Positions 694 to 21,178 of a DNA stretch of 35,457 bases are shown here, piece after piece (positions within the stretch are counted from its first letter, which is position 1; every line of letters starts with the position of its first letter). The translations under genes and the position numbers were made by a program. Origin of the DNA: Patescibacteria group bacterium (GTDB taxonomy: Bacteria; Patescibacteriota; Minisyncoccia; UBA6257; UBA11618). The notes under the pieces are model-generated. The model saw nothing but the letters and a program-made list of their open reading frames with translations. It did no database searches and was not told the DNA's origin. The stretch lies in the NCBI GenBank assembly GCA_003539915.1, contig DPNX01000002.1, positions 1 to 35,457 on the forward strand, read 5' to 3'.

Positions 694-1455
694 ATGGGAA
701 GAAGATTAGGACAACATTTTTTAAAAGATCAGAATATTCTGAAAAAAATAGCTGGCGCTCTAGAAATACAGAGTGGTGATTTTATTATTGAAGTTGGTCC
801 TGGTAGGGGGTCTTTAACTGAGTTATTGATGGCGGCTCCTGTGGGAAGGGTAATAGCAATTGAGAAAGATAAGAAATTAGCTCTCGATCTGAAGTTAAAA
901 AATAGAAATGATGTGGTCTTAGAGGTGATTGAAGATGATGTGTTGAAAGTGCTATCAACTATAACTAATAAATTAAATAGGGAATATAAGCTGATAGGTA
1001 ATATTCCTTATTACATTACCGGTCATCTATTAAGAATAGTCTCTGAGTTAGATAATAAACCCTCTTTAACAGTCTTTACCATGCAAAAAGAGGTGGCTAA
1101 GAGATTGTCCGCTAAACCACCAGCTATGAACCTGTTGGCTGCGAGTGTTCAATACTGGGCTGATCCCAAAATTGTTGCCTCTATTCCTCCTGGAAGCTTT
1201 ATTCCTCCCCCTAAAGTTGATTCAGCCATTATTAGCTTAAAAACAAAGAAGGTAAAAAATAGTGAGGATTATTATAAATTCATTAAAATTCTCTTTAAGC
1301 AACCTAGAAAAACTATCTTGAATAATCTTTCTGAGGGATTGGAAATGGAAAAAGGTACTATAAAAGAAAAATTAGCTGATTTAGATATAAAAGAGAGAAG
1401 TAGGCCTCAAAATTTGGATCTAGAAACAATTAAAAAAATATCTAAGTTGTTTTAA
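694..1455 (+). CDS. rsmA: 16S rRNA (adenine1518/1519-N6)-dimethyltransferase
   Basis: N-terminus is LGQHFLKDQNILKKI and the SAM-binding motif is IIEVGPGRGSLTE, with NIPYYIT downstream. Length of 253 aa is typical for KsgA. Confidence 0.9.
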   Translation: MGRRLGQHFLKDQNILKKIAGALEIQSGDFIIEVGPGRGSLTELLMAAPVGRVIAIEKDKKLALDLKLKNRNDVVLEVIEDDVLKVLSTITNKLNREYKLIGNIPYYITGHLLRIVSELDNKPSLTVFTMQKEVAKRLSAKPPAMNLLAASVQYWADPKIVASIPPGSFIPPPKVDSAIISLKTKKVKNSEDYYKFIKILFKQPRKTILNNLSEGLEMEKGTIKEKLADLDIKERSRPQNLDLETIKKISKLF

Positions 1456-1482
1456 GGGGGTGGATAACTCCCTTAATTTTTT
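1452..1482 (+). terminator. Rho-independent terminator after rsmA
   Basis: Stem TTAAGGGGG (1452-1460) pairs with CTCCCTTAA (1468-1476), 9 bp including one G-U, with a 7-nt loop. It is followed by TTTTTT at 1477-1482. Confidence 0.7.
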
Positions 1483-1499: not shown

Positions 1500-1505
1500 T
1501 ATAAT
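1500..1505 (+). promoter_or_regulatory. -10 box TATAAT, 6 nt before the ATG at 1512 (leaderless-type promoter of the T4SS-like operon)
   Basis: The hexamer is an exact TATAAT, followed by the 6-nt spacer tattac and then ATG. There is no Shine-Dalgarno and no convincing -35. Confidence 0.5.
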
Positions 1506-1511
1506 TATTAC

Positions 1512-2294
1512 ATGAGATCCGTCCGTAAATTCGGTTTGTTTTTGCTTATGGGCCTGTTTGCTTTGGTTGGATTAGTATTCTTTGGTAATTCATTAGAGAC
1601 TCAGACCCCTCAAGTACTGTCTCCAAAAAAAGTGGCTGTGAAGCCAGGCGCTTCAAACAACTTAAATGGAGAGATTGTTATTAATAATCTTCAGGCCGAG
1701 CCTATTATGGATGAGACCACTAAACGCCTAGGGGATCAGATTGCCCAACACATCAAGAGCTTGAATAACGACGGCTTGGTAAGTATTGATGATAAAAAAT
1801 ATGCTAAAGCTCTTAACCCAGAGAATATAGCTAACTCAATCATTAGTGAGGAGCTGGAAAAAATTAATAATATTGATCTTGGTTTCAATGATATTAAATT
1901 AGCAAAAATTAATATTGATTATCGAAATGATAAAAAAATACTGGCTGATTATTTCACCTCTTTCCAAAAAGTAATAAATAAGAACTTTGCTACACAGAAG
2001 ATAGATTGGGAAGAGTTTAATAAGAATAATTTTGATGAGATTATTTCTGCTTATGATAAAGCTATAGCCGAATTTTATAAATTAAAAGTTCCTGCCTTAG
2101 CTCTTAATATACACAAACAACAAATCTCTCTAATGATTCAACAAAAAATAGTCATGACTAAGTTGAAAGATGTTGATAGCAATCCTTTAGAGGCTTTAGC
2201 AGCTTTAAAATACAACCCCTCAATAGACGCAGGGTTTAAGGAGGTGACTAGTAAAGTTCTAAATCTATTAAAGATTAATCAGATAAGTATTTAA
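1512..2294 (+). CDS. Hypothetical bitopic membrane protein (N-terminal TM anchor plus ~230-aa external K/N/I-rich domain); first gene of the T4SS-like operon
   Basis: Hydrophobic segment FGLFLLMGLFALVGLVFFG lies near the N-terminus. The stop overlaps the next start (TAATG at 2294). I recognise no motif; the topology resembles VirB8-type proteins, which is a guess. Confidence 0.6.
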   Translation: MRSVRKFGLFLLMGLFALVGLVFFGNSLETQTPQVLSPKKVAVKPGASNNLNGEIVINNLQAEPIMDETTKRLGDQIAQHIKSLNNDGLVSIDDKKYAKALNPENIANSIISEELEKINNIDLGFNDIKLAKINIDYRNDKKILADYFTSFQKVINKNFATQKIDWEEFNKNNFDEIISAYDKAIAEFYKLKVPALALNIHKQQISLMIQQKIVMTKLKDVDSNPLEALAALKYNPSIDAGFKEVTSKVLNLLKINQISI

Positions 2295-3688
2295 TGAATA
2301 TTAGAAATAAAATTTTAGTTGGAATTCTTGGACTCAGTCTGATTTTGATACCTGTTCAGAGAGCTCAAGCTCTTTTTGGAGTTGGCGATATTGTTTTTGA
2401 AACTAATCCAGCTCTAATTTCTAATGCTGTAGGTGAGACTTTCCTTAGAGATGTTCTTAAGGTGGCAGTTAGTTCTCTTAAGAGAAGGTTATTATCAATG
2501 GTTACTGATCAGATAGTTAACTGGGTTGAAGGAGGGGGTAAGCCTCTATTTGTTACTGACTGGAAAGGCTTCTTATCTGATGCGGCTAATATTGCAGCAG
2601 GTGACTTTGCGTTAGAGCTAGGATTAGAAGAGCTCTGCTCTCCTTTCGGCCTCCAAGTTCAGTTAAGTATTCTTACCCCGCCAAGATTTACTGATTACGT
2701 TTCTTGCACACTAGATGATATCGTTGGTAATATTGAAAACTTTTATGAGGACTTCCGTAACGGTGGTTGGTTTGCCTACTCAGAAATGTGGCTACCTCAA
2801 AACAACTATTATGGTGCTGTCTTTATGGCTATGAATGAAAGAGATGTTCGAATTGCTGAAGAAGCTCAAGCTAGCATTCTAGAAGCTGTTTCTGGTAATG
2901 GTTTCTTGGGCACTAGGAAGTGTGATCCTTCTGGTAGGTTCTGTACTATTACCACTCCAGGAGCTCAAGTTGGTGCTTTAGTTGCAAAAGCTGTTGGCTC
3001 TGACATTGACTACTTGATTGAAGCTGACGATCTAGCTGTTTATGTGGGAGCGATAGCGGACGCCCTGATTAACAGGTTGGTCCGATCTGGTGCTGAAGGA
3101 TTAATTAGCTTAACTACTCCTGACAAACCATCTAATGGTTACTTTAGCGGCTCTGGTCCATGTTCTGGATTAAGAGGTGGTGACTTAACCAACTGCTTAT
3201 CAATAATTAAAGCTAGTGAAAAGACTTACGAGGATAATAAAAAATTATTCCTCACTCAAATTGATGCCACTCTACTACCAAGGCAAACTGGTGGAACAAT
3301 ATTAGCTTCCTTAGTAGAAGGTCAGTCTATATTAGTTCGAACGATAACTAACCTGAGAGATTGTCAGGCTGTCAAAAACTTACCAGAAACTATCTCTACA
3401 GAAACTAATCTTCAAAATGAGCAAGATTCTCTAAACCAATTAAATGGAGAGCTTTTGGCTAATAGGAGAATAACCGAGGCCTTGGAGAGTGCTAAGCTTA
3501 ATATTCAAAACCCTAGCTATCCAGACACACCAACTATCGCTTACCACTACAACAATATTGTTGGTTTATTAGATGAGGATGCAGCCCAATCATTCCAAAC
3601 CACCAAAGAAGCTAACAAAGAACAGCTGCAAAATGAAATTACTGGTAAGATATCAAATGCTCAACAGCAATTAGAAGCTTGTGAATAA
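2294..3688 (+). CDS. Hypothetical secreted protein with conserved-looking Cys residues and a Q/N-rich C-terminal coiled-coil-like region
   Basis: Signal peptide is ILVGILGLSLILIPVQRAQA followed by LFG. Nine cysteines are spaced along the mature part (ELCSPFG, YVSCTL, RKCDPSGRFCTI, GPCSGLRGGDLTNCL, RDCQAV, LEACE). The tail has a heptad-like Q/N/L/E pattern. Confidence 0.6.
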   Translation: MNIRNKILVGILGLSLILIPVQRAQALFGVGDIVFETNPALISNAVGETFLRDVLKVAVSSLKRRLLSMVTDQIVNWVEGGGKPLFVTDWKGFLSDAANIAAGDFALELGLEELCSPFGLQVQLSILTPPRFTDYVSCTLDDIVGNIENFYEDFRNGGWFAYSEMWLPQNNYYGAVFMAMNERDVRIAEEAQASILEAVSGNGFLGTRKCDPSGRFCTITTPGAQVGALVAKAVGSDIDYLIEADDLAVYVGAIADALINRLVRSGAEGLISLTTPDKPSNGYFSGSGPCSGLRGGDLTNCLSIIKASEKTYEDNKKLFLTQIDATLLPRQTGGTILASLVEGQSILVRTITNLRDCQAVKNLPETISTETNLQNEQDSLNQLNGELLANRRITEALESAKLNIQNPSYPDTPTIAYHYNNIVGLLDEDAAQSFQTTKEANKEQLQNEITGKISNAQQQLEACE

Positions 3689-3690
3689 TT

Positions 3691-5553
3691 ATGATATTTA
3701 AAAGACATAAAATATTACTATTACTTCTACTCTTGGTAATTTTAATGCCTAGCTTAGCTCAAGCAGATGTCTTTTCAGGTGCTGCTCTCAGCACAATAGC
3801 ATTTGCCGATGACATAATGGCAAAGGTGTTGTTCGCTGCTGTCTATCTTATTGGTTATTTAGCGGGAATTATCTTTATGATAGCTGGATTTTTACTTCAA
3901 GTAGGTCTGGAATTAAATGCTAATCTAATAAACAGCCCTCTAGTACAAGTTGGATGGCAGATATCTCGTGACTTTGCTAACTTATTATTAGTAGTAGCTA
4001 TAATAACTACTGCTCTCGGAACTATTATAAGGTGGAGAGGTTATACGTACAAGGAGATCTTACCTAGTATTATAGTCGTCGCTCTTCTAATCAACTTTAG
4101 CTTATCAATCGCTGGTATATTTATTGATGCCACTGGTGTAGTTAGTAATTTCTTTGTGGCAAAAGCAACTCCAAACGCTAGTCATGGGGACTTTATTCAA
4201 TTTTCCAGCTCTCTTGCACATGCCTTAGGATTACAAGAGGCTATGAAAACCGACCATCTTAAGGAGGACGAGTTTACAGAGAGTGCCACCTTTAAATTTG
4301 GCAAAGCTTCACTTCAATTATTAGCAGCACTGTTTTTTGTTGTTGCTTTCACCGTCTTAGGAGGGGGTACCATGATGATATTGGCCTTTTCAGTCGTAAT
4401 ACGTTATATAGCCCTGTCCTTGTTGTTAATAATGCTGCCCCTAGCCTTAATTTCTAGTACAATTCCTAAATTTAAAAAGAATTGGGAGGAGTGGCAAGGG
4501 AAGTTTATCGAGTATCTAACTTTTCTGCCAGTTTCATTATTCTTTATTTACTTAACTATTATCTTCTTGACCAATTTCAAAGATGATCCTAATGGCATCT
4601 TTAGTACTATCACCAGTAGTCAGAGTAGTGTTGCTGATTTTATTGCTAACATTGCCGAAACAGCAGCTCGACTATCTATTGTTATTGGCTTGTTGCTAGG
4701 TAATCTGATTATTTCAAAAAAAATAAGTAGTAGTGCAAAAGATATGGTGGCTAACGGTTCATTTGCTCTTTATAACAAGTTTAGGCGTGGTAGCAGGAAG
4801 GTTGGCATGCTACCTTTTCGTGGTGCTAGGGCTGGTGCTAGAGGTATTGGTAAGAGAATACCCGCTACAGATATAAGGGGTAAGGCTGTCGGAGCTATTT
4901 CTAGACTCACCTCTAGAATACCTGTTATTGGAGGAGTTCTCAGCAGCTATAGAGCTAATAGATCAGCTCAAAATGAAGAATTGCGTGCAGAGCAAGTTAA
5001 TGATTATCAAAAGAGTAAATTAAAGAATCTTTCTAATAATGAATTATTTGGCTATTCAGAGCTTGGCTCTGTTGCTAAGGCAGCTAAGTTAAACGAGCTA
5101 TCTAAGAGAGGTAAGTTGGATGAATATCTTAGTAAGAGTAAAGACTCAGAAGCTGCCCTCAAGCCATTTATTGATGCAGCTAAGAAGATGGGTACTCAGA
5201 AGGATCTACTTAAAACTCGCCCTGACCTAGCTGGTAGCTTTGCTGAAGTAGGTGATGATGTAGCTGAGGCAATTGAGAAAGCGGTTGGTAAGATCTCTCC
5301 TAAAGACTCTTTGGAAATAGCGACTTCTGCGCTGAAGAAGGTTGAAGTGGCTATGTCTTTAAAGATGAATCAATTAAAAGAAATTGCTCGAAGTGCTACA
5401 CCTGAGAAGAAGCAAGTTCTTCAAAATGCTGTAAGAATTCATTTAGATCCTCTCATACTAAAAGATACTTCAGCAATGAGTGGTGTAGAAAAACAAATAT
5501 TTGAAAAGCTCAGTAAAATTGATGCGTTTATGGAAGGTCCAGCTTGGAGTTAA
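3691..5553 (+). CDS. VirB6/TrbL-like polytopic membrane protein with a ~250-aa basic/Ala-Lys-rich C-terminal tail
   Basis: A signal-like N-terminus (LLLLLLLVILMPSLAQA) is followed by at least 6 long hydrophobic segments up to about residue 345, then a soluble tail (RRGSRKVGMLPFRGARAGARGIGKR...). Size, topology and position next to PrgI/VirB4 genes fit VirB6-type channel subunits. Confidence 0.6.
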   Translation: MIFKRHKILLLLLLLVILMPSLAQADVFSGAALSTIAFADDIMAKVLFAAVYLIGYLAGIIFMIAGFLLQVGLELNANLINSPLVQVGWQISRDFANLLLVVAIITTALGTIIRWRGYTYKEILPSIIVVALLINFSLSIAGIFIDATGVVSNFFVAKATPNASHGDFIQFSSSLAHALGLQEAMKTDHLKEDEFTESATFKFGKASLQLLAALFFVVAFTVLGGGTMMILAFSVVIRYIALSLLLIMLPLALISSTIPKFKKNWEEWQGKFIEYLTFLPVSLFFIYLTIIFLTNFKDDPNGIFSTITSSQSSVADFIANIAETAARLSIVIGLLLGNLIISKKISSSAKDMVANGSFALYNKFRRGSRKVGMLPFRGARAGARGIGKRIPATDIRGKAVGAISRLTSRIPVIGGVLSSYRANRSAQNEELRAEQVNDYQKSKLKNLSNNELFGYSELGSVAKAAKLNELSKRGKLDEYLSKSKDSEAALKPFIDAAKKMGTQKDLLKTRPDLAGSFAEVGDDVAEAIEKAVGKISPKDSLEIATSALKKVEVAMSLKMNQLKEIARSATPEKKQVLQNAVRIHLDPLILKDTSAMSGVEKQIFEKLSKIDAFMEGPAWS

Positions 5554-5571
5554 TATTAAAATTAATAAACC

Positions 5572-6360
5572 ATGGTCACAATAACATTACAAAACGCTTT
5601 CGCCTCATTATCCGATAAAACCAGGGACTGGCTTACTTCCGAAGAGATAGTGAATAAGATAACCTCTCTTAATGATGGGTTAGGATTAAAATCTGATCGA
5701 CGTCGAATAATATCTAAATTAATTCTTCGAGTAGCTGTCCAGGATTTAGATCCTCGAGACTTTGCTAATGAGCTAGGATCTCAATTAAAAATCAATTATG
5801 AGGCAGCAAAAGAAATAACTCAAAAAGTTCATGCTGATTGCTTGCAACCAATCGAAGCAGAATTAAAGAAAATTAATGTTGATGTTCATGAGATGATTGA
5901 ATACTCTACAGCTCCACCTGAACAACTATCAGCCTATCCTGACAAGCCAGCGCCGGTAATGGAATATTCTAAGCCTGCTAAGCTAGGTTCCAAACCTCTT
6001 AAAGTTGAGGCTACTAGTAAGCTGTCAACCACAGCTCCTGATAACCTGCCTTTAGCAAAACAAAAAATGAAACCAGTTTCCCCTGCCCAACCTTTTGTAT
6101 TACACAAAGAAACGGGTGATATTAAACCAGTAGAAGAGGGGGGTAAGACTTCTTTCAAATACAAAGAGTCTGTTAGAGAAAGAGCTGTTAAGGAACCTCC
6201 CGTTAAAGTTAAAATAGAAAGTCCTCAGAGTGGTAATAACTTAGAGTTTCAGAGAATAGTACATTATAGTAACTTCTTTACCCCTTTTAACACTCCTCAA
6301 ACACCCCCAACCAAGGGAGAGGTTAAAGTTAAAGTACCAGATTCTAAATGGTTTAGTTAA
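5572..6360 (+). CDS. Hypothetical soluble protein: ~110-aa helical N-domain plus Pro/Lys-rich low-complexity tail
   Basis: The ORF has no TM segment or signal peptide. The tail PDKPAPVMEYSKPAKLGSKPLKV...PPVKVKIESP looks disordered. It is co-oriented and 18 nt from the upstream gene. Confidence 0.55.
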   Translation: MVTITLQNAFASLSDKTRDWLTSEEIVNKITSLNDGLGLKSDRRRIISKLILRVAVQDLDPRDFANELGSQLKINYEAAKEITQKVHADCLQPIEAELKKINVDVHEMIEYSTAPPEQLSAYPDKPAPVMEYSKPAKLGSKPLKVEATSKLSTTAPDNLPLAKQKMKPVSPAQPFVLHKETGDIKPVEEGGKTSFKYKESVRERAVKEPPVKVKIESPQSGNNLEFQRIVHYSNFFTPFNTPQTPPTKGEVKVKVPDSKWFS

Positions 6361-6361
6361 T

Positions 6362-6832
6362 ATGCATTTTCAAGTTCCTCAATTTATTGATGTAGAAGAT
6401 AAAATAGTTGGTCCTTTAACTATTAAGCAGTTTTTGTATGTTGCGGCTGGATTCTTAACTATTTTCTTTAGCTTCTTTATTTTTCACTTTTATTTTTGGT
6501 TAATATCTACTGTCTTTATTGTAGTAATAAGTGGTGCTTTCGCTTTTATTAAGTATAATGGCAGATCGTTCTTAGTCCTTATAACATCAGTAATCAATTA
6601 TTACTGGCGTCCTCGTATCTACATCTGGAAAAAAAGGGGTGGTAAACAGGTTAAAAAGAGAGGATTATCAAATCTAAAGTTAAAATTAGATACCTCAAGG
6701 AAGCCTATTAAAGGAGAGAAGTCTTTTATGCTTCCTTTCTTGCAAAGAATAAAGAAGATGAAGGATGAGTATGAGGTTTTTAGAAAATCTACGGGTGAAA
6801 GAGAGGTGGCTCGTAGAGTTGATTATAGATAA
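6362..6832 (+). CDS. PrgI-family (VirB3-like) small membrane protein
   Basis: The N-terminus FQVPQFIDVEDKIVGPLTIKQFLY is followed by two TM helices. This is the characteristic opening of PrgI-family proteins of Gram-positive-type T4SS, and the gene lies directly upstream of VirB4. Confidence 0.7.
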   Translation: MHFQVPQFIDVEDKIVGPLTIKQFLYVAAGFLTIFFSFFIFHFYFWLISTVFIVVISGAFAFIKYNGRSFLVLITSVINYYWRPRIYIWKKRGGKQVKKRGLSNLKLKLDTSRKPIKGEKSFMLPFLQRIKKMKDEYEVFRKSTGEREVARRVDYR

Positions 6833-6834
6833 GT

Positions 6835-6840
6835 TATAAT
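6835..6840 (+). promoter_or_regulatory. Internal -10 box TATAAT, 6 nt before the ATG at 6847
   Basis: An exact TATAAT sits in the 14-nt PrgI/VirB4 spacer. It has the same TATAAT-N6-ATG geometry as at 1512 and 33321. Confidence 0.4.
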
Positions 6841-6846
6841 AAAGCG

Positions 6847-7518
6847 ATGCCAAAACAAAAATCCCTAGCAACACAAGAAATTATTGATATTGATCGCATT
6901 GAAGATGATGTGATTGTTTTGAAAGGTGGTAGTTTTAGAAAAATATTATTAGTTTCAGGAATTAACTTTGATCTTAAATCTGAAGAAGAGAAGAACTTGA
7001 TCATCTTCAGTTACCAGGAGTTTTTAAACTCTCTAAGCTTTTCTATTCAAGAGATAATTCATTCTCGAAAGATTAATATTGAGGGTTATTTGAGTCATTT
7101 AAAAAATCTCCATCAAAAAGAACCTACTAGCTTGTTAAAAAATTTAATTACTGACTATAAAGATTTTGTTAAAGAGTTTGTAGAAAGAAATCCTATTATG
7201 TCTAAGACTTTTTTTATTGTAGTGCCTTATGACCCTATTAATATTCCTAAGATAGGTAAAAGAGTAACTAGAGGTTTGTTTGGATTATTTAAAAAGAAGA
7301 AAGGAGTGGTTGAAGAAAAAACTGAAGATGGTCAGTTTTTAGAAAATAAGCGGCAGCTGGATTTGAGAGTGGATCAAGTAACAGCAGGACTAAATAGGGT
7401 TGGCTTGAGAGCTGTTCCTTTATCAGAAGATGAGGCTATTGAATTATTTTATAATTTTTATAATCCAGCATTAGTAGAAAAGAAAGGTGTTATTAAAAGA
7501 GATAAAAATGAAGAATGA
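6847..7518 (+). CDS. VirB4/TraE-type ATPase, N-terminal domain encoded as a separate ORF
   Basis: TQEIIDIDRIEDDVIVLKGGSFRKILLVSGINFDLKSEEEKNLIIFSYQEFLNSL matches the conserved opening of Gram-positive-type VirB4 proteins (recalled pattern, not a search). The ORF ends at TGA 7516-7518, inside the next ORF. Confidence 0.7.
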   Translation: MPKQKSLATQEIIDIDRIEDDVIVLKGGSFRKILLVSGINFDLKSEEEKNLIIFSYQEFLNSLSFSIQEIIHSRKINIEGYLSHLKNLHQKEPTSLLKNLITDYKDFVKEFVERNPIMSKTFFIVVPYDPINIPKIGKRVTRGLFGLFKKKKGVVEEKTEDGQFLENKRQLDLRVDQVTAGLNRVGLRAVPLSEDEAIELFYNFYNPALVEKKGVIKRDKNEE

Positions 7519-9205
7519 AATTAAAAACATAATAGCGCCAGCTGCTCTAGAGGTTAGCCCTAGCTATTTAAAGTTGGGTGATAAGTATACTAAAACTATA
7601 TTTATCACATCCTATCCTCGTTACTTAGCCACCGGCTGGTTCTCATCAATCATTAATGCTCCTGAATTAATGGATGTATCTATTTTTGTTCATCCGGTAG
7701 ATACCGCAATTGCTTTGAAAAGTTTAAGGCGGAAAACTGCTCAAATAGAATCGCAGATAATAGAAAAAAGTGAGAAGGGGGTTGTTCGAAGTCCTAAATT
7801 AGAAACCGCTCTTCAAGACATTGAGTCTTTAAGAGATTCCTTGCAACAAGCGACTGAGCATCTATTTAATGTTTCTGTTTATATAACTATTTATGCTGAT
7901 AGTGTTAATGAATTAAAAAGATTAGAGGGTAAGATCAATCACTTATTAGAAAGTCGTCTAGTTTATAGCAAGCCAGCCACCTTTCAACAGATAGAGGCCT
8001 TTAACACCACCCTGCCAATAGGAAAAGACTCTTTAATGATCACGTCTCCTTTCAACTCTTCACCAGCCTCTTCGTTTTTTCCTTTTGTTTCTGCCACATT
8101 AACTTCTGATAGCGGTGTACTACAGGGTATTAATCTTAGTAACAATACTTTGGTTATTTTCGACCGCTTTTCTCTAGAAAATGCTAACCAGGTCATCTTT
8201 GCCACCTCTGGTTCTGGTAAATCATATGCTGCTAAATTAGAAGCTTTGAGATTATTAATGACTGGAACCGATGTCCTGATTATCGATCCAGAAAATGAGT
8301 ATAAGAATCTAGCAAAAGCAGTTGGAGGGAGTTTCTTTAATATCTCTCTAGCATCAAAAGATCATATTAACCCTTTTGATTTACCAATTATTCCTAAGGA
8401 TAGTGATCCAACAGATACTCTAAAATCACATATAGTTAACTTAGCTGGTTTATTAAAAATAATGCTAGGGGAGATGACTCCTGAGGAAGAGGCTCTCTTG
8501 GATAGGGCTATATCAGAAACCTATGCCTCTAGAGACATAGCTCCAGGAAAAGACTTTTCTAAAGCTCAACCACCATTATTATCCGACTTAGAAACTGTTC
8601 TTAATAGCTTGACTGGTGGTCAGTCATTAGCCCAACGCCTATATAGATATACCCAAGGTAGTTATGCTGGCTTTATCAACCAACCAACCAACATTAATAT
8701 ACGGAATAGATTGGTTGTCTTCTCTATTAGAGATCTTGAGGAGGAGTTGAGACCTATAGCGATGTATATGATCGTTAACTTCATCTGGAGCCTAATTAAA
8801 AGTGAGTTGAAGCAACGAGTGATGATAGTTGATGAGGCTTGGTGGATGATGAAATACCCTGCTGGCGCCTCTTTTATGTTTGGATTGGTTAAGAGAGCTA
8901 GAAAATACTATTTAGGTGTCACTACTATAACTCAAGACGTTGAAGACTTCTTACAATCTCCTTATGGAAGACCGATAATTACAAACTCTGCTTTACAGAT
9001 ATTATTAAAACAGCAACCGGCAATGATTGATTTGCTTGCTAAGACGTTTAACCTGACAGAAAGTGAGAAGAATTTCTTACTAGACGCACCTGTGGGTGAG
9101 GGGCTGTTTTTTGCAGGCTTAAATCATGTCATTATTAAGATAGTAGCTTCTTATCTTGAGGATCAGATCATAACAACAAATCCAAAAGACTTATTAAATG
9201 AGTAA
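7508..9205 (+). CDS. virB4: VirB4/TraE-type conjugal-transfer-like ATPase, central and C-terminal ATPase part
   Basis: Walker A is ATSGSGKSY (8207-8224) and Walker B is VMIVDEAWWMM (8819-8836), with IAPAALEVSPSYLKLGDKYTKTIFITSYPRY upstream. I prefer the ATG at 7508 over the tracked GTG at 7487. Confidence 0.85.
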   Translation: MKNEIKNIIAPAALEVSPSYLKLGDKYTKTIFITSYPRYLATGWFSSIINAPELMDVSIFVHPVDTAIALKSLRRKTAQIESQIIEKSEKGVVRSPKLETALQDIESLRDSLQQATEHLFNVSVYITIYADSVNELKRLEGKINHLLESRLVYSKPATFQQIEAFNTTLPIGKDSLMITSPFNSSPASSFFPFVSATLTSDSGVLQGINLSNNTLVIFDRFSLENANQVIFATSGSGKSYAAKLEALRLLMTGTDVLIIDPENEYKNLAKAVGGSFFNISLASKDHINPFDLPIIPKDSDPTDTLKSHIVNLAGLLKIMLGEMTPEEEALLDRAISETYASRDIAPGKDFSKAQPPLLSDLETVLNSLTGGQSLAQRLYRYTQGSYAGFINQPTNINIRNRLVVFSIRDLEEELRPIAMYMIVNFIWSLIKSELKQRVMIVDEAWWMMKYPAGASFMFGLVKRARKYYLGVTTITQDVEDFLQSPYGRPIITNSALQILLKQQPAMIDLLAKTFNLTESEKNFLLDAPVGEGLFFAGLNHVIIKIVASYLEDQIITTNPKDLLNE

Positions 9206-9614
9206 GATTGGTTTAATAGAATCTTTTATTCTAGTTAGTTTTGTTGCTATAGCCGAGCTACTAGAATTAATAGTTACTCTTGCTGTTGGACCAGGAGAGG
9301 TGGTGAAGTGGTTTATAAATATTATTGTGTGGCTTCCTGTTCAGTTCTGGTTATTGTTCAGGGGAGCGAGAGGTGATCTGTACGCTTTATCAGTATTAAT
9401 TGAGTTCATTCCTTTTGTAAACGCCTTACCAATAAAAACAGCTTTATTAATTACCACTATCTATATTCACAATCACCCTGAGTCGGCCGCGGCAAAAACT
9501 GTGCATACCGCACAAGAAGTAATGCCTGTTAAAAAGCCCAGGAGGAAGCCTAAACCTAAGATTAAAAAGAAGTCTAAGGTCAGAATGGCTACTAAAGTAA
9601 TTACTAAAATATGA
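9198..9614 (+). CDS. Hypothetical small polytopic membrane protein with Lys/Pro-rich C-terminal tail
   Basis: It has 3-4 hydrophobic segments and then the tail KKPRRKPKPKIKKKSKVR. Its start overlaps the VirB4 stop by 8 nt. Confidence 0.55.
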   Translation: MSKIGLIESFILVSFVAIAELLELIVTLAVGPGEVVKWFINIIVWLPVQFWLLFRGARGDLYALSVLIEFIPFVNALPIKTALLITTIYIHNHPESAAAKTVHTAQEVMPVKKPRRKPKPKIKKKSKVRMATKVITKI

Positions 9615-10273
9615 ATCGTATAATTTTAATAATTTTTATCTGTCTACTATCCTTACCAGCTCTAGCTCACGGGCAAGAGTTCTTATTCAATTGGGAGGGT
9701 GATAGTTTTGTGCCTGGTTTTTATCAAGGAAGAAGAATGCCTACTGATAATTCATCCTTAAAAATGAGTTTTGAATTAATAGAAAATGATCGCTTGTTGA
9801 ATATTAAAGGTAAAAAGGTGGAGTGGTATGTAGATGGAAAATTATCCCAAAAAGGTGTTGGTTTACAAAGAATAACTGCTAATCAATTTAATGTAAGTCG
9901 TAGTGATATATTTGTTAGAGTTTTAATAAAAAATTTTAAAGGAGGTAATCTAGAAAAAAGCTTTATCATCCCTAAAACAATCCCAAAAGTTATTATTGAA
10001 AGAAATTTTATTAATAATACAATATCAGCTGGAATAAGTATTATTAAGGCATGGCCTTTATTTTTTAATATAGACGATCTATCGGATTTAAATTTCAATT
10101 GGTTTTCCAATAATATTAAACATTCTGGTGAGGATGTTGAAAGGCCTAATGTTTTAGAGCTAGATATACCAACTGACAATGGTCAATTCTCTGTTAATTT
10201 AAATATAAATGTTGTTAATAATAAAAATATAAGTGAGTCAGCTATTAAAAAAATAAATCTAACAATAAAATGA
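9611..10273 (+). CDS. Hypothetical secreted beta-rich protein
   Basis: Signal peptide is IILIIFICLLSLPALAHG. FNWEGDS near the N-terminus and FNWFSNN near residue 160 hint weakly at two related modules. ATGA overlaps link it to the genes on both sides. Confidence 0.55.
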   Translation: MNRIILIIFICLLSLPALAHGQEFLFNWEGDSFVPGFYQGRRMPTDNSSLKMSFELIENDRLLNIKGKKVEWYVDGKLSQKGVGLQRITANQFNVSRSDIFVRVLIKNFKGGNLEKSFIIPKTIPKVIIERNFINNTISAGISIIKAWPLFFNIDDLSDLNFNWFSNNIKHSGEDVERPNVLELDIPTDNGQFSVNLNINVVNNKNISESAIKKINLTIK

Positions 10274-11619
10274 AGAAGGTTTTTATTATTATAATATTAT
10301 TAGTTCTATCAACTCCTATCGCTTTTGGTCAAGGAGCTATGGAGTCAGCACTTGCTCTTGATGAAGTTGAGGAGAGGGTTGGGACAAGAAATGACTTAAT
10401 GACAAGTATAGACCGAACAACGGATACAAATAGAATGAGTCATTTAAGTGGGTCTAAACTAACTACAAGAATTAGAAGAGATGCTCAAGAAATGAAGAAG
10501 GCTCTTTATGATCCATATGTTGATGTTGATGAGGTCAAAACTTATCAAATACTAAGAGGTACGTCTAGTAATTATAGAACAAGGTTAGCTGAAGAATATC
10601 TACGGATAACGGGTAACAGGTTTCAAAGTGATTTACTTCGCCTAGGAAATGATAATGGTCATGATGTTTTAAGAGGTAAGTTATTATTTAAACAAGGAAC
10701 CCTCTACCCTGAGGATAGGATTGTTTTAGGTTCTGATGGGAGAGGTACTAATGAAAGGTTATTTTTTGATGAGGTGATGAGCATGAGTCTTTACCCAGAA
10801 GATAAAGCTAGGCTCAATGATAGGTGGGCTGAAAAGTATGGCTCTTCGGGTATTTTTAAGGCTAGAGCTAATGGTGGTGAGAGTAGCGTTTTAACTTATT
10901 TTTACAGCGAAGAGTCTGATGAGTCATATAGATCCACCCTTCAAGCCTTATGGGAGGGAAAGGGTGGTTTTCAAGATAATCATGCTGCTCTAACAGCATC
11001 TTGGCTAGGTATTAATCCTGCTGAGCTCGATAGAGCAGCTGCTAGGACTTATGCGGAAAGAGTTGTTGATGAGCAAATGAACAGGGGGGAGACTAGAAAC
11101 GATGCTGTAATGAGAATCTACAATGAAAAACTAGCCTTTATTAGGACTGGGATGGGTAGTCTTCAGGTTACAGGCTCTGGAGAGTTAGAATGTGGACCCG
11201 ATGGTCTTGGTTATAAACTTTGTGTTCCTATATTGGGAAAGGAGAAGGTGGAAAATATTGGTGGTTATATAGTTTTAATTTATCAGTTTGCTCTAGCTAT
11301 ATCTGGGATCCTTGCCTTTATAATGATTACTTATGGTGGTATTAGATGGACTGTTTCAGGAGGTAATGTTAGTAAAATAAGTGAAGCAAAAGAAATTATT
11401 ACAAACGCTATTTTTGGACTTATTCTTTTAGCTATAGCTACTAGCATTCTATATATCATAGATCCCTCTATATTAAGTATACGAGTTGATAAATCCACCT
11501 TTACCGTAAGAGCGCCTAACTACAAGGCGCCTGTAAAACCTATACCAATTCCAGATCCAGATAGACTGCCTTCCGCGCCTTTAATTATAATTGACCCCGG
11601 TGAATCAAATAACGAATAA
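10270..11619 (+). CDS. Secreted ~300-aa helical-repeat domain fused to a C-terminal VirB2/TrbC-type pilin hairpin
   Basis: Signal peptide is IIIILLVLSTPIAFG. The C-terminus has TM1 IVLIYQFALAISGILAFIMITYGGI, the loop RWTVSGGNVSKISEAKEIITN and TM2 AIFGLILLAIATSILYII, which is the T4SS pilin pattern common in CPR genomes. The N-domain carries DAQEMKKAL...IL..TS and GRGTNE motifs. Confidence 0.65.
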   Translation: MKKVFIIIILLVLSTPIAFGQGAMESALALDEVEERVGTRNDLMTSIDRTTDTNRMSHLSGSKLTTRIRRDAQEMKKALYDPYVDVDEVKTYQILRGTSSNYRTRLAEEYLRITGNRFQSDLLRLGNDNGHDVLRGKLLFKQGTLYPEDRIVLGSDGRGTNERLFFDEVMSMSLYPEDKARLNDRWAEKYGSSGIFKARANGGESSVLTYFYSEESDESYRSTLQALWEGKGGFQDNHAALTASWLGINPAELDRAAARTYAERVVDEQMNRGETRNDAVMRIYNEKLAFIRTGMGSLQVTGSGELECGPDGLGYKLCVPILGKEKVENIGGYIVLIYQFALAISGILAFIMITYGGIRWTVSGGNVSKISEAKEIITNAIFGLILLAIATSILYIIDPSILSIRVDKSTFTVRAPNYKAPVKPIPIPDPDRLPSAPLIIIDPGESNNE

Positions 11620-12764
11620 TGAAAAAAATAATTATTACAATTTCAATCATCTTAATCGTTATTATTAGTGGTTTTATAATCTATTCATTCTTAAGCCCAA
11701 GTGACACCTTGGACTTTGAAATAATAGATTTAGTTACTGATAATTCTGAAAGCACTGATTCAGAACTAGTTTTTGAAAATAAAATAAATATTGTATCACC
11801 AGAAGAAATTTTAGGTTATTCAATTAATCCAGTCACTAAGCATGTTTACGTTGTTAATACGCTAGGTGAAATTAAAAAGATTAATAACTCGAACTCTGAA
11901 AAAGTTTCTAGTCAAAAAATTAAGGGGATTAATAAGGTTCAGTCCTCAAAAGATGGTAGGAAAATAATGATTGGATTTAACTATCCCAACCAACCAGTTT
12001 TTTCTATTTATAATATTACTGATAGCAACTGGACACCTCTTCCTAAAAATACTATCAGCGCTGATTGGCACCCAGAAAATTCTAATGAAATTATTTATTT
12101 AACTAATGATAATTTAAAGATATTAGATCTTAAAAAAAATAGGTCTAGGTCTGTTTTAAACATTAAATTAACAGGCTCTAAATTAGACTGGGTGTCGTTA
12201 AGTGAGGTGATTGTAATGGAGAGACCTACTACTAAATACAGCTCTGATGCGTGGTTGATTAATTTGAGCACTAAAAAAATTAAAAAAATAGCCTCGGGTA
12301 AAGGTTTAATGATTAATCAGAAAGACGGTTGGAGACTAAGCTTTGTTTATAATAGTAAGGGTAATGAGGTGTTTAATTTAATTAATTCAGAAACTAATAA
12401 GGTTGTTGGTTATTTTAACTTCAGAACCCTACCTTCTAAATGTGTTATTGATCAAAATAATTTTTATTGTGCTATCCCGAATCAAATACCATTGAACACA
12501 TCTCTACCTAATGATTATTTGAGTAGAAAATTTATATCTGATGATATTATCCAATCTATAATGATTAGTAGTGATTCGCAATCAATAGAGTCTAAAATAT
12601 TATACAAAGAAGGGGATGATTTGGTTGATGCTACTGACCTTAAAATAGTTAATGATCAGTTATATTTTATTAATCGATCTGATAATAAACTCTATAGCCT
12701 AAAGTTAGATAAGGTGATAGAGGGGGTTGTTAAGGAGGGGGTTACTGAAGAAGCTTCACAATAA
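11619..12764 (+). CDS. Hypothetical membrane-anchored protein, possibly beta-propeller (TolB-like blades); last gene of the operon
   Basis: N-terminal anchor is IIITISIILIVIISGFIIYSF. Blade-like segments recur, for example ISADWHPENSNEIIYLTNDNLKILDL. The fold call is a guess. Confidence 0.5.
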   Translation: MKKIIITISIILIVIISGFIIYSFLSPSDTLDFEIIDLVTDNSESTDSELVFENKINIVSPEEILGYSINPVTKHVYVVNTLGEIKKINNSNSEKVSSQKIKGINKVQSSKDGRKIMIGFNYPNQPVFSIYNITDSNWTPLPKNTISADWHPENSNEIIYLTNDNLKILDLKKNRSRSVLNIKLTGSKLDWVSLSEVIVMERPTTKYSSDAWLINLSTKKIKKIASGKGLMINQKDGWRLSFVYNSKGNEVFNLINSETNKVVGYFNFRTLPSKCVIDQNNFYCAIPNQIPLNTSLPNDYLSRKFISDDIIQSIMISSDSQSIESKILYKEGDDLVDATDLKIVNDQLYFINRSDNKLYSLKLDKVIEGVVKEGVTEEASQ

Positions 12765-14151: not shown

Positions 14152-14286
14152 TTAAACAGTAATGTTTTTTCTACCCTTTTGACGACGGCTTTTTAACACT
14201 CGTCGACCACCCGGGGAGGCGCTTCTTTTTAAGAATCCGTGGACTCTTTTTCTCTTTCTTTTTTTAGGTTGATATGTTGTTGACAT
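14152..14286 (-). CDS. rpmH: 50S ribosomal protein L34 (44 aa; below the ORF-track size cutoff)
   Basis: Hand translation of the minus strand gives [44 protein letters not shown]. This is the L34 signature, and the gene abuts rnpA. Confidence 0.95.
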
Positions 14287-14313
14287 AATAATTATTTATA
14301 GCAGAAAATATAG

Positions 14314-14333
14314 TTTTCCACAACTCATCCACA
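14314..14333 (+). promoter_or_regulatory. Two DnaA-box-like 9-mers in the rpmH-dnaA spacer
   Basis: TTTTCCACA (14314-14322) and TCATCCACA (14325-14333) each have one mismatch to TTATCCACA. Confidence 0.6.
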
Positions 14334-14366
14334 TGTTATTAATTTAGGTCTTATTTCATTGAAATT

Positions 14367-14394
14367 TTGACGAGATGCGAAGAGTGATTAAAAT
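14367..14394 (+). promoter_or_regulatory. dnaA promoter: TTGACG-16 nt-TAAAAT, with the -10 ending 6 nt before the ATG
   Basis: The -35 is at 14367-14372 and the -10 at 14389-14394, with the ATG at 14401. There is no Shine-Dalgarno in between. Confidence 0.55.
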
Positions 14395-14400
14395 GATGAT

Positions 14401-15762: not shown

Positions 15763-16026
15763 CTTATGGATAAGCTGAGGATTACTGGTGAGTGAGTTCT
15801 GGATAAAAAGTTAGTAAAAACAACTCTACTCAACAAGGTTAAAAGATATCCTATACTTATTACTCTTCTATCCGAGTTTAATCCACAGGAAGTAAACAGG
15901 TTGTTGCGCAGAAAAAAATATTTTTAATTCGATTATAAAAGGGTTATAATATGTTATTCACAAAAAAGGTCCTACACTACTAACTACTACTACTATTAAT
16001 AATTAATATATAAATATATTAGTAAT
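15763..16026 (+). other. Candidate oriC (dnaA-dnaN spacer): DnaA boxes, CTA/TAG trinucleotide run, AT-rich unwinding element
   Basis: One-mismatch boxes are TATGGATAA (15765-15773, reverse orientation), TCTGGATAA (15798-15806, reverse), TAATCCACA (15879-15887) and TTATTCACA (15954-15962). Seven CTA triplets lie at 15972-15995. The stretch 15996-16026 contains only one G/C base. Confidence 0.7.
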
Positions 16027-21046: not shown

Positions 21047-21178
21047 ATTAACTCCTTTTCAAAAGAGGTTTGAGGAACTGGGCATATTATTACACATAAA
21101 TATAATTTAGTCAATACCCGATAAACACCTAAAGTCAACCACTTTATTTTTTGTTTGAAAACGGCTAGGATAATAGCG

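Follow-up and report, generated by a model that had tools for sequence, protein, structure and literature searches.

Type IV secretion systems (T4SS) that have no relaxase and lie close to the replication origin are already described across the phylum Patescibacteria in papers published from 2023 to 2025. Quinonero-Coronel et al. (2025, Microb Genom 11:001409, PMC12102498) describe this class, note that it has no relaxase, and place it near dnaA, ksgA, rnpA, and rpmH; the class is also treated in a 2025 review. In PMC12102498, the Paceibacteria arrangement has the same VirB4, adjacent TrsD, PrgI/VirB3, VirB6, and PF18895 VirB2-like pilin as the cluster analyzed here; it is likewise without a relaxase or coupling protein (T4CP) nearby, lies beside dnaA, dnaN, ksgA (rsmA), rnpA, and rpmH, and is given the same hypothesis of repurposing for import or host interaction. 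The present cluster, which adjoins the replication origin in a 35,457-nucleotide stretch of DNA (the window) from an uncultured marine Patescibacteria (CPR) bacterium with a reduced genome, is not different in kind. Relative to the accessible text of that paper, the present analysis adds that all 11 open reading frames (ORFs) form a conserved module, that ORF11 encodes a TolB-like propeller, that the single pilin of each locus bears a variable extension, and that the ectodomain of the window pilin holds sub-threshold, unconfirmed annexin-like repeats.

The SEML1_0006-0019 cluster of Southlakia epibionticum ML1 (Wang et al. 2023, Cell; PMC10633639) is likewise a Gram-positive-like T4SS with pilins, shows within it neither a recognizable relaxase nor a coupling protein, and is chromosomal, near the start of genome numbering. 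However, it belongs to Saccharimonadia, encodes six divergent pilins in an array where the window has one extended pilin, and has peptidase and lysozyme genes directly downstream of virB4; furthermore, its essentiality has been shown by experiment. With the monoderm MPF-FATA systems (pCF10 Prg, pGO1/pSK41 Trs, and the C. difficile CTn elements), the window cluster shares a VirB4 above the CD1110 threshold, TrsD-like and PrgI-like parts, and a CD3337/EF1877- or PrgH-like (VirB6) part, and both are without the VirB7/9/10 outer-membrane core. Unlike those systems, the window cluster is without relaxase, T4CP, oriT-processing genes, a VirB1-type hydrolase, and a recognizable VirB8-like protein, has a VirB2-type pilin, which is missing from Gram-positive systems, and is fixed in the chromosome rather than mobile.

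Two further systems bear on import. Helicobacter pylori ComB, which the initial annotation had offered as an analogy, is likewise a T4SS that works with neither relaxase nor coupling protein, and VirB2-, VirB3-, VirB4-, and VirB6-type parts are common to both. The analogy holds to that extent but is loose: ComB is diderm, has VirB7, VirB8, VirB9, and VirB10 homologues, none of which were detected in the window cluster, and is MPF-T-like phylogenetically, whereas the lineage studied here is monoderm and its cluster is MPF-FATA-like and derived from that class. ComB takes up DNA, whereas competence in cultured Patescibacteria is attributed to type IV pili together with ComEC. The crenarchaeal Ced system (CedA, CedB) is an importer driven by a VirB4/HerA-type ATPase that works alongside type IV pili, and it is therefore a conceptual precedent for import; however, the similarity of the window VirB4 to Ced is weak, partial, and limited to the P-loop (40.9 bits, cut-off 700), and no CedA-like protein was identified in the window cluster.

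Results

The 11 ORFs lie on the same strand at positions 1512-12764, and a check of coordinates and strands showed that all junctions are overlaps or gaps of 18 nt or less, the largest gap being 18 nt. Start and stop codons are shared as TAATG at 2294 (ORF1/ORF2) and 11619 (ORF10/ORF11), and the overlaps measure 11 nt (7508/7518), 8 nt (9198/9205), 4 nt (9611/9614), and 4 nt (10270/10273). None of the 11 ORFs is interrupted, and together they make up a single chained operon, as the initial annotation had described. The features are as follows.

1452-1482, plus strand: intrinsic-terminator-like hairpin (1452-1476; 10-bp stem, 4 GC pairs) and T-run ending rsmA; upstream operon boundary
1500-1505, plus strand: TATAAT hexamer, 6 nt upstream of the ORF1 ATG (1512)
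1512-2294, plus strand: ORF1, 260 aa, lineage-specific, N-terminal membrane anchor and helical ectodomain (hydropathy)
2294-3688, plus strand: ORF2, 464 aa, secreted, conserved cysteines and C-terminal long-helix bundle (homologue alignment, AF2)
3691-5553, plus strand: ORF3, 620 aa, extended VirB6/TrbL-like polytopic membrane protein (orthologue Pfam matches, hydropathy)
5572-6360, plus strand: ORF4, 262 aa, conserved N-terminal region of ~100 aa and Pro-rich tail, no transmembrane (TM) segment, predicted cytoplasmic (hydropathy)
6362-6832, plus strand: ORF5, 156 aa, PrgI/VirB3-like two-TM protein (Pfam PF12666)
6847-7518, plus strand: ORF6, 223 aa, TrsD/TraC-like protein, VirB4 N-terminal domain as a separate gene (NF041427, PF26593)
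7508-9205, plus strand: ORF7, 565 aa, VirB4 ATPase body (NF045971, 4AG5, Walker motifs)
9198-9614, plus strand: ORF8, 138 aa, small 3-TM membrane protein with basic tail (hydropathy)
9611-10273, plus strand: ORF9, 220 aa, secreted or anchored (orthologue profiles)
10270-11619, plus strand: ORF10, 449 aa, signal peptide, ~310-aa ectodomain, VirB2-type T4SS pilin hairpin, and Pro-rich tail (PF18895)
11619-12764, plus strand: ORF11, 381 aa, membrane-anchored TolB-like beta-propeller, last gene (family profile)

The terminator and the TATAAT hexamer noted earlier upstream of the operon were both found. The hexamer is possibly a -10 element of a leaderless transcript, but the promoter call is weak because no -35 hexamer lies at the usable spacing of 16-18 nt, and a two-hexamer scan did not list this site. 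The convergent overlap of the ORF11 3' end with jag, also noted before, measures 23 nt.

Profile searches support the four T4SS parts that had been named from the sequence (VirB6, PrgI/VirB3, VirB4, and the pilin), VirB6 through its orthologues. ORF7 has intact Walker A (ATSGSGKS) and Walker B (VMIVDE) motifs, matches the NCBIfam CD1110 VirB4 family NF045971 (2.6e-113, 379.8 bits, cut-off 325, positions 186-731 of 752) and the VirB4 C-terminal domain structure 4AG5 (E=6.5e-40), and has orthologues in 80/80 loci; Pfam TraG P-loop/AAA_10 matches 7487-9205. ORF6 matches NF041427 TrsD (8.4e-9), the TraC-like family PF26593, and N-terminal positions of VirB4 models, and it aligns collinearly with the N-terminal part of VirB4 ORFs that are fused (768-790 aa) at three loci (L013, L024, L059). 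About 875 stand-alone ORF6 homologues of 210-235 aa were found, and the ORF6/ORF7-type split is present in three independent assemblies. A frameshift as the cause of the two pieces is ruled out by these homologues and assemblies. The VirB4 in two pieces reported earlier was thus confirmed by profiles as two ORFs, with the correction that, judging from the homologues, it is a conserved gene split into a TrsD/TraC-like protein and an ATPase body.

ORF5 matches PF12666 (PrgI; 1.7e-8, 35.3 bits, cut-off 27), its orthologue lies directly upstream of TrsD in 79/80 loci, and it is predicted to be the membrane tether for VirB4. ORF3 has nine hydrophobic segments, comprising a signal/TM segment and about eight TM segments, followed by a hydrophilic helical C-terminal domain of ~280 aa. 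Taken alone, it lies under every curated threshold, with no direct Pfam match and a below-cut-off match to NF046089 (CD3337/EF1877; 4.5e-4); however, TrbL/VirB6 (PF04610) was matched by 4 of 25 ORF3 orthologues (best E=1.3e-7), and orthologues occur in 50/52 loci.

The pilin call rests on a PF18895 (T4SS_pilin) match at ORF10 residues 334-397 (2.4e-8, 34.3 bits, cut-off 26.6) and a pilin-hairpin HMM (3.8e-25), which rejected ORF8 as a pilin. The ectodomain occurs in only six proteins, and sub-threshold annexin-like repeat matches at residues ~68-192 make an annexin-like, possibly membrane-binding, domain an unconfirmed candidate; the AF2 model of ORF10 was unusable (pLDDT 43.5). Each locus has a single pilin gene, whose extension is highly variable (99-1223 aa), and accommodating the ~310-aa ectodomain of the sole pilin in a canonical VirB2 pilus lattice may be difficult, a point that counts against the host-directed T4SS reading given below. 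Such a variable, surface-exposed extension is expected of a host-recognition surface and, together with the candidate membrane-binding domain, fits an adhesive pilus that attaches to the host without transport. This reading is nonetheless unlikely: type IV pili already give adhesion in these genomes (window PilB-like ATPase; PMC12206443, PMC10633639), and the fact that the locus has kept both an extended VirB6 channel protein and a complete VirB4 points to translocation.

Hydropathy agrees with the earlier statement that five of the six unnamed ORFs carry a signal peptide or TM anchor, finding N-terminal hydrophobic or TM segments in all but ORF4. ORF1 has no match in Pfam, NCBIfam, or PDB, and has orthologues at the same offset in 39/46 loci. 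The ORF2 family (99 homologues, orthologues in 37/46 loci) is confined to Patescibacteria, and almost none of its members has a Pfam domain; C115, C138, C210, and C217 are invariant or near-invariant, and the AF2 model (pLDDT 71.8 overall, >95 at residues 310-464) gave no Foldseek match in PDB below E=0.05. No match was found for the ORF4 family in Pfam and PDB (orthologues in 57/62 loci) or for ORF8 in Pfam (orthologue directly 3' of VirB4 in 51/70 loci). ORF9, with orthologues in 50/65 loci, is probably beta-rich; it has no match in PDB, and its orthologues gave a faint BiPBP_C match in 3/31 and nothing else. The ORF11 family profile matches TolB structures (3.8e-9), its orthologues (45/55 loci) match PD40, DPPIV_N, and YqgU propellers. 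In all, seven of the 11 cluster proteins, the TolB-like propeller among them, are lineage-specific without assignable function, and prediction places six of these seven in the membrane or among exported proteins. Nothing resembling VirB8 or VirB1 was recognized in the cluster.

The cluster is flanked by uvrD-rsmA on one side and jag-yidC-rnpA-rpmH-dnaA-dnaN on the other, a housekeeping context that had been proposed earlier and is borne out by Pfam (UvrD_C, RrnaAD (RsmA), R3H (Jag), YidC, RnpA, DnaA, DnaN).

14152-14286, minus strand: rpmH
14287-16026, unstranded: dnaA (14401-15762) and flanking intergenic DNA, likely oriC (DnaA-box-like 9-mers; DnaA and DnaN by Pfam)

Six of the 12 one-mismatch TTATCCACA matches of the window fall in ~380 bp of intergenic DNA. 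The two regions concerned flank dnaA, lie 1.5-3 kb from where the cluster ends, and are likely oriC. Genes for recombination and repair (RuvABC, UvrB, UvrD) are abundant in the window.

The initial annotation had held that the cluster does not look like a conjugative element, that the window is devoid of DNA-processing and integration functions, and, by eye, that composition shows no obvious break; these points stood. No relaxase, T4CP (VirD4/TraG), VirB11, or integrase was found by profile searches in any scanned ORF of the window, no tRNA in the window, and no bounding direct or att-like repeats around the cluster. The sole T2SSE-family ATPase in the window, 562 aa long and carrying an MshEN domain, is of the PilB type. 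GC (0.345 vs 0.350), GC3 (0.272 vs 0.278), codon usage (r = 0.966), and tetranucleotides (correlation equal to the internal control) revealed no break between the cluster and neighboring housekeeping genes. The description "coupling-protein-less" holds for the cluster and the 35-kb window, to which it should be restricted: VirD4-like genes are present elsewhere in most Patescibacteria genomes according to the 2025 survey (PMC12102498), and a T4CP may lie elsewhere in this genome.

Synteny in related genomes agrees with the origin-proximal placement: nearly every related locus of at least 18 kb preserves the order uvrD-rsmA-cluster-jag-yidC-rnpA-dnaA-dnaN, and each of the 11 ORFs has recurrent counterparts with matching offset and strand, so that they form a conserved module. 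In the rsmA-jag interval of 26 relatives, no relaxase, T4CP, integrase, or VirB11 was present among 113 extra intra-cluster ORFs. A decayed ICE, or its transfer region, that has lost relaxase, coupling protein, and integrase would account for a VirB4 whose closest resemblance is to conjugative MPF-FATA ATPases (CD1110 family) and for TrsD, PrgI, and CD3337/EF1877-like parts typical of Gram-positive conjugative elements. However, dozens of species-level Paceibacteria-type genomes have the cluster in the same place and with the same gene order, with proteins only 40-55% identical, which argues from sequence comparison that the cluster is a native, old, vertically inherited chromosomal module; with the intact operon, the uniform composition, and the lack of integrase, att repeat, and tRNA, the decayed-ICE reading is extremely improbable and effectively refuted. 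As a monoderm machine, the system is probably akin to the MPF-FATA conjugation class, and it is fixed beside the origin in Paceibacteria-type genomes.

Discussion

The cluster is quite probably a Patescibacteria-type T4SS serving host interaction rather than conjugation. The earlier statement that the function of such clusters is essentially untested is outdated because Tn-seq showed the homologous cluster to be essential for epibiotic growth in Southlakia epibionticum (PMC10633639). Its pilins are also essential, and comEC is not (PMC10633639, PMC12857230); it should be noted that this essentiality comes from Saccharimonadia, another class, in which several arrayed pilins take the place of the single one (PMC10633639). 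These results weigh against a ComB-like or Ced-like competence machine taking up free environmental DNA for transformation. The lack of relaxase and T4CP in the cluster, as in ComB, the partial VirB4 matches to archaeal CedB (1e-10) and CedD (1.4e-6), and the repair genes of the window are consistent with such a machine; however, those matches are far below cut-off, the CedB ones are confined to the shared P-loop core, and the only genetically tractable relative transforms via comEC and type IV pili, with comEC dispensable for growth and the T4SS essential. The monoderm type, with VirB7, VirB9, and VirB10 not found, excludes the cluster from the ComB family, and competence is very unlikely.

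For a host-directed T4SS, DNA-processing partners would have been lost or never present. By the usual course of T4SS assembly, VirB3 and VirB6 would form a membrane platform, and a VirB4 hexamer would extract pilin subunits from the membrane for polymerization into a tube or pilus; lineage-specific envelope proteins may replace the missing VirB8, VirB1, and cell-wall-spanning parts. By comparison with published cultured relatives, the structure would contact the host cell and be required for epibiotic growth. This assembly model rests on analogy because seven of the 11 cluster proteins have no assignable function.

As for the substrate, a contact-dependent exporter of effectors or toxins into or onto a host bacterium, with no dedicated coupling protein in the cluster, is possible but doubtful. 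T4CP-less protein-secreting T4SSs are known (Bordetella Ptl and Brucella VirB, as cited in PMC12102498), Wang et al. regard protein export as possible (PMC10633639), and several Sec-exported operon proteins have no known function. However, no candidate effector or immunity pair was recognized in the cluster or beside it, ORFs 1, 2, 9, and 11 belong to the conserved module and are not variable cargo, and the biosynthetic poverty of the lineage and reported RNA uptake favor import. Uptake of macromolecules from the host, for example nucleic acids (RNA, DNA) and possibly lipids, is the tentative choice, and the remaining likelihood falls to something other than uptake, effector export, or attachment only. 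We infer a host-directed conduit, with import favored. The import or contact-dependent exchange suggested in the initial annotation matches current published hypotheses, and tubular structures penetrating the host, with host RNA uptake, have been reported in a cultured relative (bioRxiv 10.64898/2026.06.21.733656).

Architecture of the cluster and its surroundings

An ORF scan of the window returned the same eleven + strand ORFs, spanning 1512-12764, that had been proposed in the initial annotation; these are called ORF1 to ORF11 here, from the rsmA side to the jag side. As first described, neighbouring ORFs share a TAATG at 2294 and at 11619, overlap by 11 nt (7508/7518), 8 nt (9198/9205), 4 nt (9611/9614) and 4 nt (10270/10273), and are nowhere separated by a gap of more than 18 nt. 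The upstream flank consists of the UvrD C-terminus and RsmA, and a T-run with a terminator-like hairpin lies 3' of rsmA at 1452-1476, in agreement with the terminator originally placed there. Downstream, the order is Jag, YidC, RnpA, RpmH (14152-14286, minus strand), DnaA, DnaN and a class A PBP, and the convergent overlap claimed for jag and the cluster was found as a stretch of 23 nt shared by ORF11 and jag. The TATAAT reported at 1500-1505 is present, only 6 nt 5' of the ORF1 ATG at 1512, and an operon promoter at this hexamer, giving a leaderless transcript, is plausible from the sequence, although a -35 element at the proper spacing is absent. The search for a sigma-70 promoter for the operon yielded this -10 hexamer only, with promoter-like sites numbering 48 against a shuffled expectation of 50.

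Within approximately 380 bp of intergenic DNA around dnaA lie 6 of the 12 near-consensus DnaA boxes of the whole window, and this cluster of boxes, together with the dnaA-dnaN pair, supports placing the origin there. GC skew was uninformative for the origin: it goes with the coding strand throughout the window, and no switch was found at dnaA. Transcription of the 11-kb operon points toward the presumed origin (dnaA at 14401), and a head-on encounter with the leftward replication fork would follow. All relatives with the dnaA linkage preserve this orientation.

Type IV secretion components encoded by the cluster

Profile, structure and orthologue searches gave assignments to the following cluster genes.

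3691-5553, + strand: ORF3, VirB6/TrbL-like, by transitive homology and topology
6362-6832, + strand: ORF5, PrgI/VirB3 (PF12666, 35.3 bits, above the cut-off of 27)
6847-7518, + strand: ORF6, TrsD/TraC-like VirB4 N-terminal domain (NF041427 TrsD, 8.4e-9, below the 200-bit cut-off)
7508-9205, + strand: ORF7, VirB4 ATPase body (NF045971 CD1110 VirB4, 379.8 bits against a cut-off of 325)
10270-11619, + strand: ORF10, T4SS pilin hairpin at residues 334-397 (PF18895, 34.3 bits, cut-off 26.6)
11619-12764, + strand: ORF11, membrane-anchored TolB-like beta-propeller

The PrgI/VirB3-like protein and the VirB2-type pilin hairpin named in the initial annotation were thus both recovered above threshold, and the VirB4 described there as being in two pieces (6847-9205) is borne out by the TrsD and CD1110 VirB4 profile matches. 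ORF7 aligns to positions 186-731 of the 752 in the CD1110 VirB4 model, matches structure 4AG5 (E=6.5e-40), and retains intact Walker A (ATSGSGKS) and Walker B (VMIVDE) motifs; its profile matches point to an MPF-FATA affinity. ORF6 also matches the first ~100-230 positions of several VirB4 models and carries PF26593 (TraC-like) in precomputed domain calls, and the named close homologues of this piece all belong to Patescibacteria. ORF6 and ORF7 together make up one VirB4, each contributing a complementary half.

A frameshift or assembly error behind the two-piece VirB4 was ruled out by the existence of about 875 stand-alone ORF6 homologues of 210-235 aa and by independent assemblies, the identical gene pair being present in three independent marine-metagenome assemblies, TARA Oceans included. 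The two pieces are fused in only 3 of ~76 related loci (L013:746-3103, L024:788-3157 and L059:10001-12307; 768-790 aa). These natural fusions, which tie both VirB4 halves together, are collinear with ORF6 plus ORF7, and the split point in the window corresponds to a ~10-residue unconserved linker of the fused ORFs. The division of VirB4 into two genes is natural.

The VirB6/TrbL-like call for ORF3 was accepted on transitive homology only. The window copy has no Pfam match and reaches 4.5e-4 and 19 bits, against a cut-off of 120, with NF046089 (the CD3337/EF1877 mobilome membrane family), while TrbL/VirB6 is matched by 4 of 25 orthologues (best 1.3e-7). Its layout is about 8-9 TM segments followed by a hydrophilic tail of ~280 aa, an 'extended VirB6'. 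No direct sequence match was found between the VirB6-like family and the solved VirB6/TrwI structures.

Lineage-specific proteins

Six ORFs had been left unnamed in the initial annotation, and ORF11 alone among them gained an assignment: its family profile matches TolB structures (E=3.8e-9), and its orthologues match PD40, DPPIV_N and YqgU. The family of ORF2 has conserved cysteines and is confined to Patescibacteria; an AF2 model of moderate quality overall (pLDDT 71.8) shows a helical bundle at the C-terminus, predicted with confidence. A search for a VirB5-like or other known fold in ORF2 led to no assignment, Foldseek against the PDB returning generic helical bundles only (E at least 0.05). 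Profile and structure searches gave no assignment for ORFs 1, 4, 8 and 9. For ORFs 1, 4 and 9, family profiles against the PDB and member scans against Pfam were searched for a VirB8-like or VirB1-like protein and came back empty; the sole ORF1 match in these scans was a signal-peptide artefact. ORF8 was rejected as a hidden second pilin, since a hairpin HMM (41 orthologues) matches only ORF10 within the window.

Besides ORF6 and ORF7, ORF4 (5572-6360) is the sole cluster protein without a membrane segment. It has a conserved N-terminal region of ~100 aa, a Pro-rich tail and a conserved 'RVVHYS..RTP' motif, and no relatives were detectable outside the cluster for this family, which is present in 57 of 62 related loci. 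ORF4 is a candidate cytoplasmic adaptor.

The cluster is a native and conserved module

To place the cluster among its relatives, 80 related loci from species-representative genomes, almost all of them Patescibacteria MAGs, were retrieved with an alignment of the TrsD-like protein as query. Across these loci, tblastn detected VirB4 in 80/80, TrsD in 80/80 and PrgI in 79/80. The other ORFs were traced by iterative HMMs, with denominators counting the loci long enough for the ORF, and recur with unchanged offset and strand across most loci: ORF1 in 39/46, ORF2 in 37/46, ORF3 in 50/52, ORF8 in 51/70, ORF9 in 50/65 and ORF11 in 45/55. Nearly all loci of at least 18 kb have the order UvrD, RsmA, the cluster, Jag, YidC, RnpA, DnaA, DnaN and PBP1. 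The rsmA-jag location is fixed in nearly all of the long loci, the dnaA linkage being lost only in more distant lineages (e.g., L044, L062 and L076), and the arrangement must be old because protein identities are only 20-60%.

The initial annotation had seen no compositional break by eye, and GC, GC3, codon usage (r=0.966) and tetranucleotides of the cluster match the rest of the window. It had also listed tRNAs, flanking direct repeats, relaxase, T4CP, VirB11 and integrase as absent; the window holds no tRNA and no bounding repeat, and none of the four proteins is among its ORFs. The remainder of the window encodes housekeeping proteins (RuvA, RuvB, RuvC, TsaE, Pol I, Fpg, UvrB, a Mur ligase and an RNase J-like enzyme) and one PilB-type ATPase. 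Furthermore, among 113 extra ORFs from the rsmA-to-jag interval of 26 relatives, relaxase, T4CP, integrase and VirB11 were all absent; these ORFs gave two further pilins and sporadic insertions, namely 23S-IVP genes, one IS200 and one PD-(D/E)XK nuclease. Short genes for 23S rRNA intervening-sequence proteins (PF05635) lie inside the T4SS cluster of six relatives (among L009-L080) and not in that of the window, and bacterial TSP3-repeat proteins occur within the rsmA-to-jag interval of six relatives, the window having none.

Taken together, these data demonstrate that the cluster is native and not foreign. The idea that it is the remnant of an ICE is rejected on synteny, native composition and the lack of tRNA, bounding repeats and mobility genes, and has next to no probability left. 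Relaxase, T4CP or integrase in relatives, att repeats, and profiles failing to support the components had been named at the outset as evidence against the initial reading; each was looked for, in the window or in the rsmA-to-jag interval of the 26 relatives, and none was found.

Relation to known systems

The closest description of the cluster is the Patescibacteria-clade T4SS surveyed by Quinonero-Coronel et al. 2025 (PMC12102498). In that survey, VirB4 is reported in 2,417 of 3,035 genomes as a clade nested in MPF-FATA, with TrsD as the most abundant associated component alongside PrgI/VirB3, VirB6 and PF18895-type pilins; relaxases are reported in only 103 genomes, and T4CP homologues are mostly distant from virB4. 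For Paceibacteria specifically, the survey places the T4SS close to dnaA, dnaN, rnpA, ksgA and rpmH. The window shares with this clade, so described, VirB4 with an adjacent TrsD, PrgI/VirB3, a PF18895 pilin, and a chromosomal cluster free of relaxase and T4CP near dnaA, ksgA, rnpA and rpmH. It matches the defining features that were tested, with VirB6 supported by transitive homology only.

Unlike the transfer region of an MPF-FATA ICE or plasmid, the window has no relaxase (MOB) or T4CP among its ORFs or in the interval of the 26 relatives, no integrase, att repeats, tRNA target or atypical composition, and a cluster location that is fixed in nearly all of the long related loci. Because relaxase, T4CP, integrase and mobility were each looked for in the window and the related loci and not found, the cluster is not a conjugative element. 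Nor does it belong to the ComB family: VirB7, VirB8, VirB9 and VirB10, the diderm core components, have no Pfam or NCBIfam match on any of the 11 proteins. ComB, with which the cluster had been compared initially, and archaeal Ced remain functional analogies only. The term 'coupling-protein-less' holds for the cluster and the window only.

Relaxase-less Patescibacteria T4SSs were published in 2023-2025 and have already been reviewed, so the cluster is a rediscovery, and the initial interpretation was sound. Relative to the available text of the survey, modest new elements are that the 11 genes form a conserved module in which seven families lack an assignment, that one of its proteins is a TolB-like propeller, and the single pilin with a hypervariable extension and an unconfirmed annexin-like domain.

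The pilin and its variable extension

With the local hairpin HMM, 56 of 59 loci were each found to have exactly one pilin-hairpin gene, typically 1-1.6 kb downstream of VirB4. The encoded proteins are 99 to 1223 aa long. Most relatives carry the hairpin close to the N-terminus (a median of 56 residues before it), with a variable extension behind it that has a median of 152 aa and a maximum of 1096 aa; the window pilin is the opposite extreme of the set, with 329 residues preceding the hairpin. VirB2-type pilins (VirB2, TraA) have both termini on the cell-exterior side, and therefore either arrangement would show the variable domain outward. The surface-facing extension runs from 0 to about 1100 aa and is usually C-terminal, being N-terminal and candidate annexin-like in the clade of the window.

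The window ectodomain was found in only six proteins, with at least 69% identity and always joined to the hairpin. In phmmer against the PDB it matched annexin A4 at a sub-threshold E=1.8e-4, and with the family profile annexins made up all 43 top matches (E=1.3e-4 to 4e-3), spanning two consecutive repeats in register (residues ~68-192 of the ORF10 product). Pfam Annexin, for which the cut-off is 25 bits, scored 17.3 in one orthologue and 12.9 in another, and did not match the window copy of ORF10. The annexin signals are consistent with one another but all sub-threshold. The AF2 model, built on a 6-sequence alignment, had a pLDDT of 43.5 and its fold is not readable; of the GxGT-like loop 'GRGT', only G-T is kept in orthologues. 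The ectodomain is therefore best described as a candidate for annexin-like repeats.

If it were a true annexin, the ectodomain would bind acidic phospholipids, the pilus or membrane platform could dock on or fuse with the host membrane, and host RNA, DNA or lipids could be taken up by the route so opened. The wider proposal, that the single VirB2-type pilin itself recognises the host and engages its membrane through the hypervariable extension as an uptake device, is improbable. Under that proposal, the seven conserved lineage-specific proteins, among them the TolB-like propeller and ORF2 with its cysteines and helical bundle, would build an envelope apparatus unlike any structurally described T4SS.

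Proposed function

From what is established on T4SSs, the membrane platform would consist of VirB3 and the extended VirB6, and a two-polypeptide VirB4 hexamer would pull the pilin from the membrane and polymerise it. The exported or membrane-bound ORFs 1, 2, 8, 9 and 11 may replace the unrecognised VirB8, VirB1 and wall-spanning parts.

The initial annotation held the function of such clusters to be essentially untested, which is out of date: Tn-seq by Wang et al. found the Southlakia epibionticum cluster essential for epibiotic growth (PMC10633639). This homologous cluster is essential with its pilins included, and comEC is not (PMC10633639, PMC12857230); essentiality for epibiotic growth is known only for S. 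epibionticum (PMC10633639). Natural transformation in a cultured relative is attributed to ComEC and T4P (PMC10633639, PMC12857230), and a machine for competence with free DNA is a very improbable function for the window cluster. In a cultured parasite of the Patescibacteria phylum, tubular structures penetrate the host and host RNA is taken up (bioRxiv 10.64898/2026.06.21.733656). The import idea of the initial annotation is the same as the import of DNA or other macromolecules proposed in the survey (PMC12102498), and an import conduit is the reading that we tentatively prefer. Export of effectors is somewhat unlikely, and a role in adhesion only is distinctly so.

Patescibacteria make up a large part of bacterial diversity, and their T4SS is a leading candidate for the device by which these tiny cells, poor in biosynthetic capacity, feed on or contact their hosts. 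The window adds a further uncultured marine example, which leaves the question of feeding no easier to test. It does supply a clean list of the 11 genes that make up the Paceibacteria-type module, seven of them coding for conserved proteins of unassigned function, and a sole pilin that bears a variable, probably surface-exposed domain; the gene list and this domain are concrete targets for structural work once a cultured member of the class can be handled.

Neighbouring genes

A public contig that reaches upstream of the window carries a gene with LysM and Peptidase_M23 domains (L081:1059-1910, minus strand) just upstream of uvrD, ~2 kb before the window start. From its domains, the product is a possible cell-wall hydrolase that could fill the missing VirB1 role, and M23/LysM proteins near virB4 are noted in the survey (PMC12102498). 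Inside the window, a PilB/GspE-type assembly ATPase is encoded at 21155-22843 (562 aa, T2SSE plus MshEN domain), and no other recognisable type IV pilus genes were found there. This ATPase shares its superfamily with VirB11 but is of the PilB type. DNA polymerase I, in which no 3'-5' exonuclease domain was detected, is encoded by two adjacent ORFs that share one base: a 5'-3' exonuclease (24440-25312, 290 aa) and a polymerase domain (25312-26601, 429 aa).
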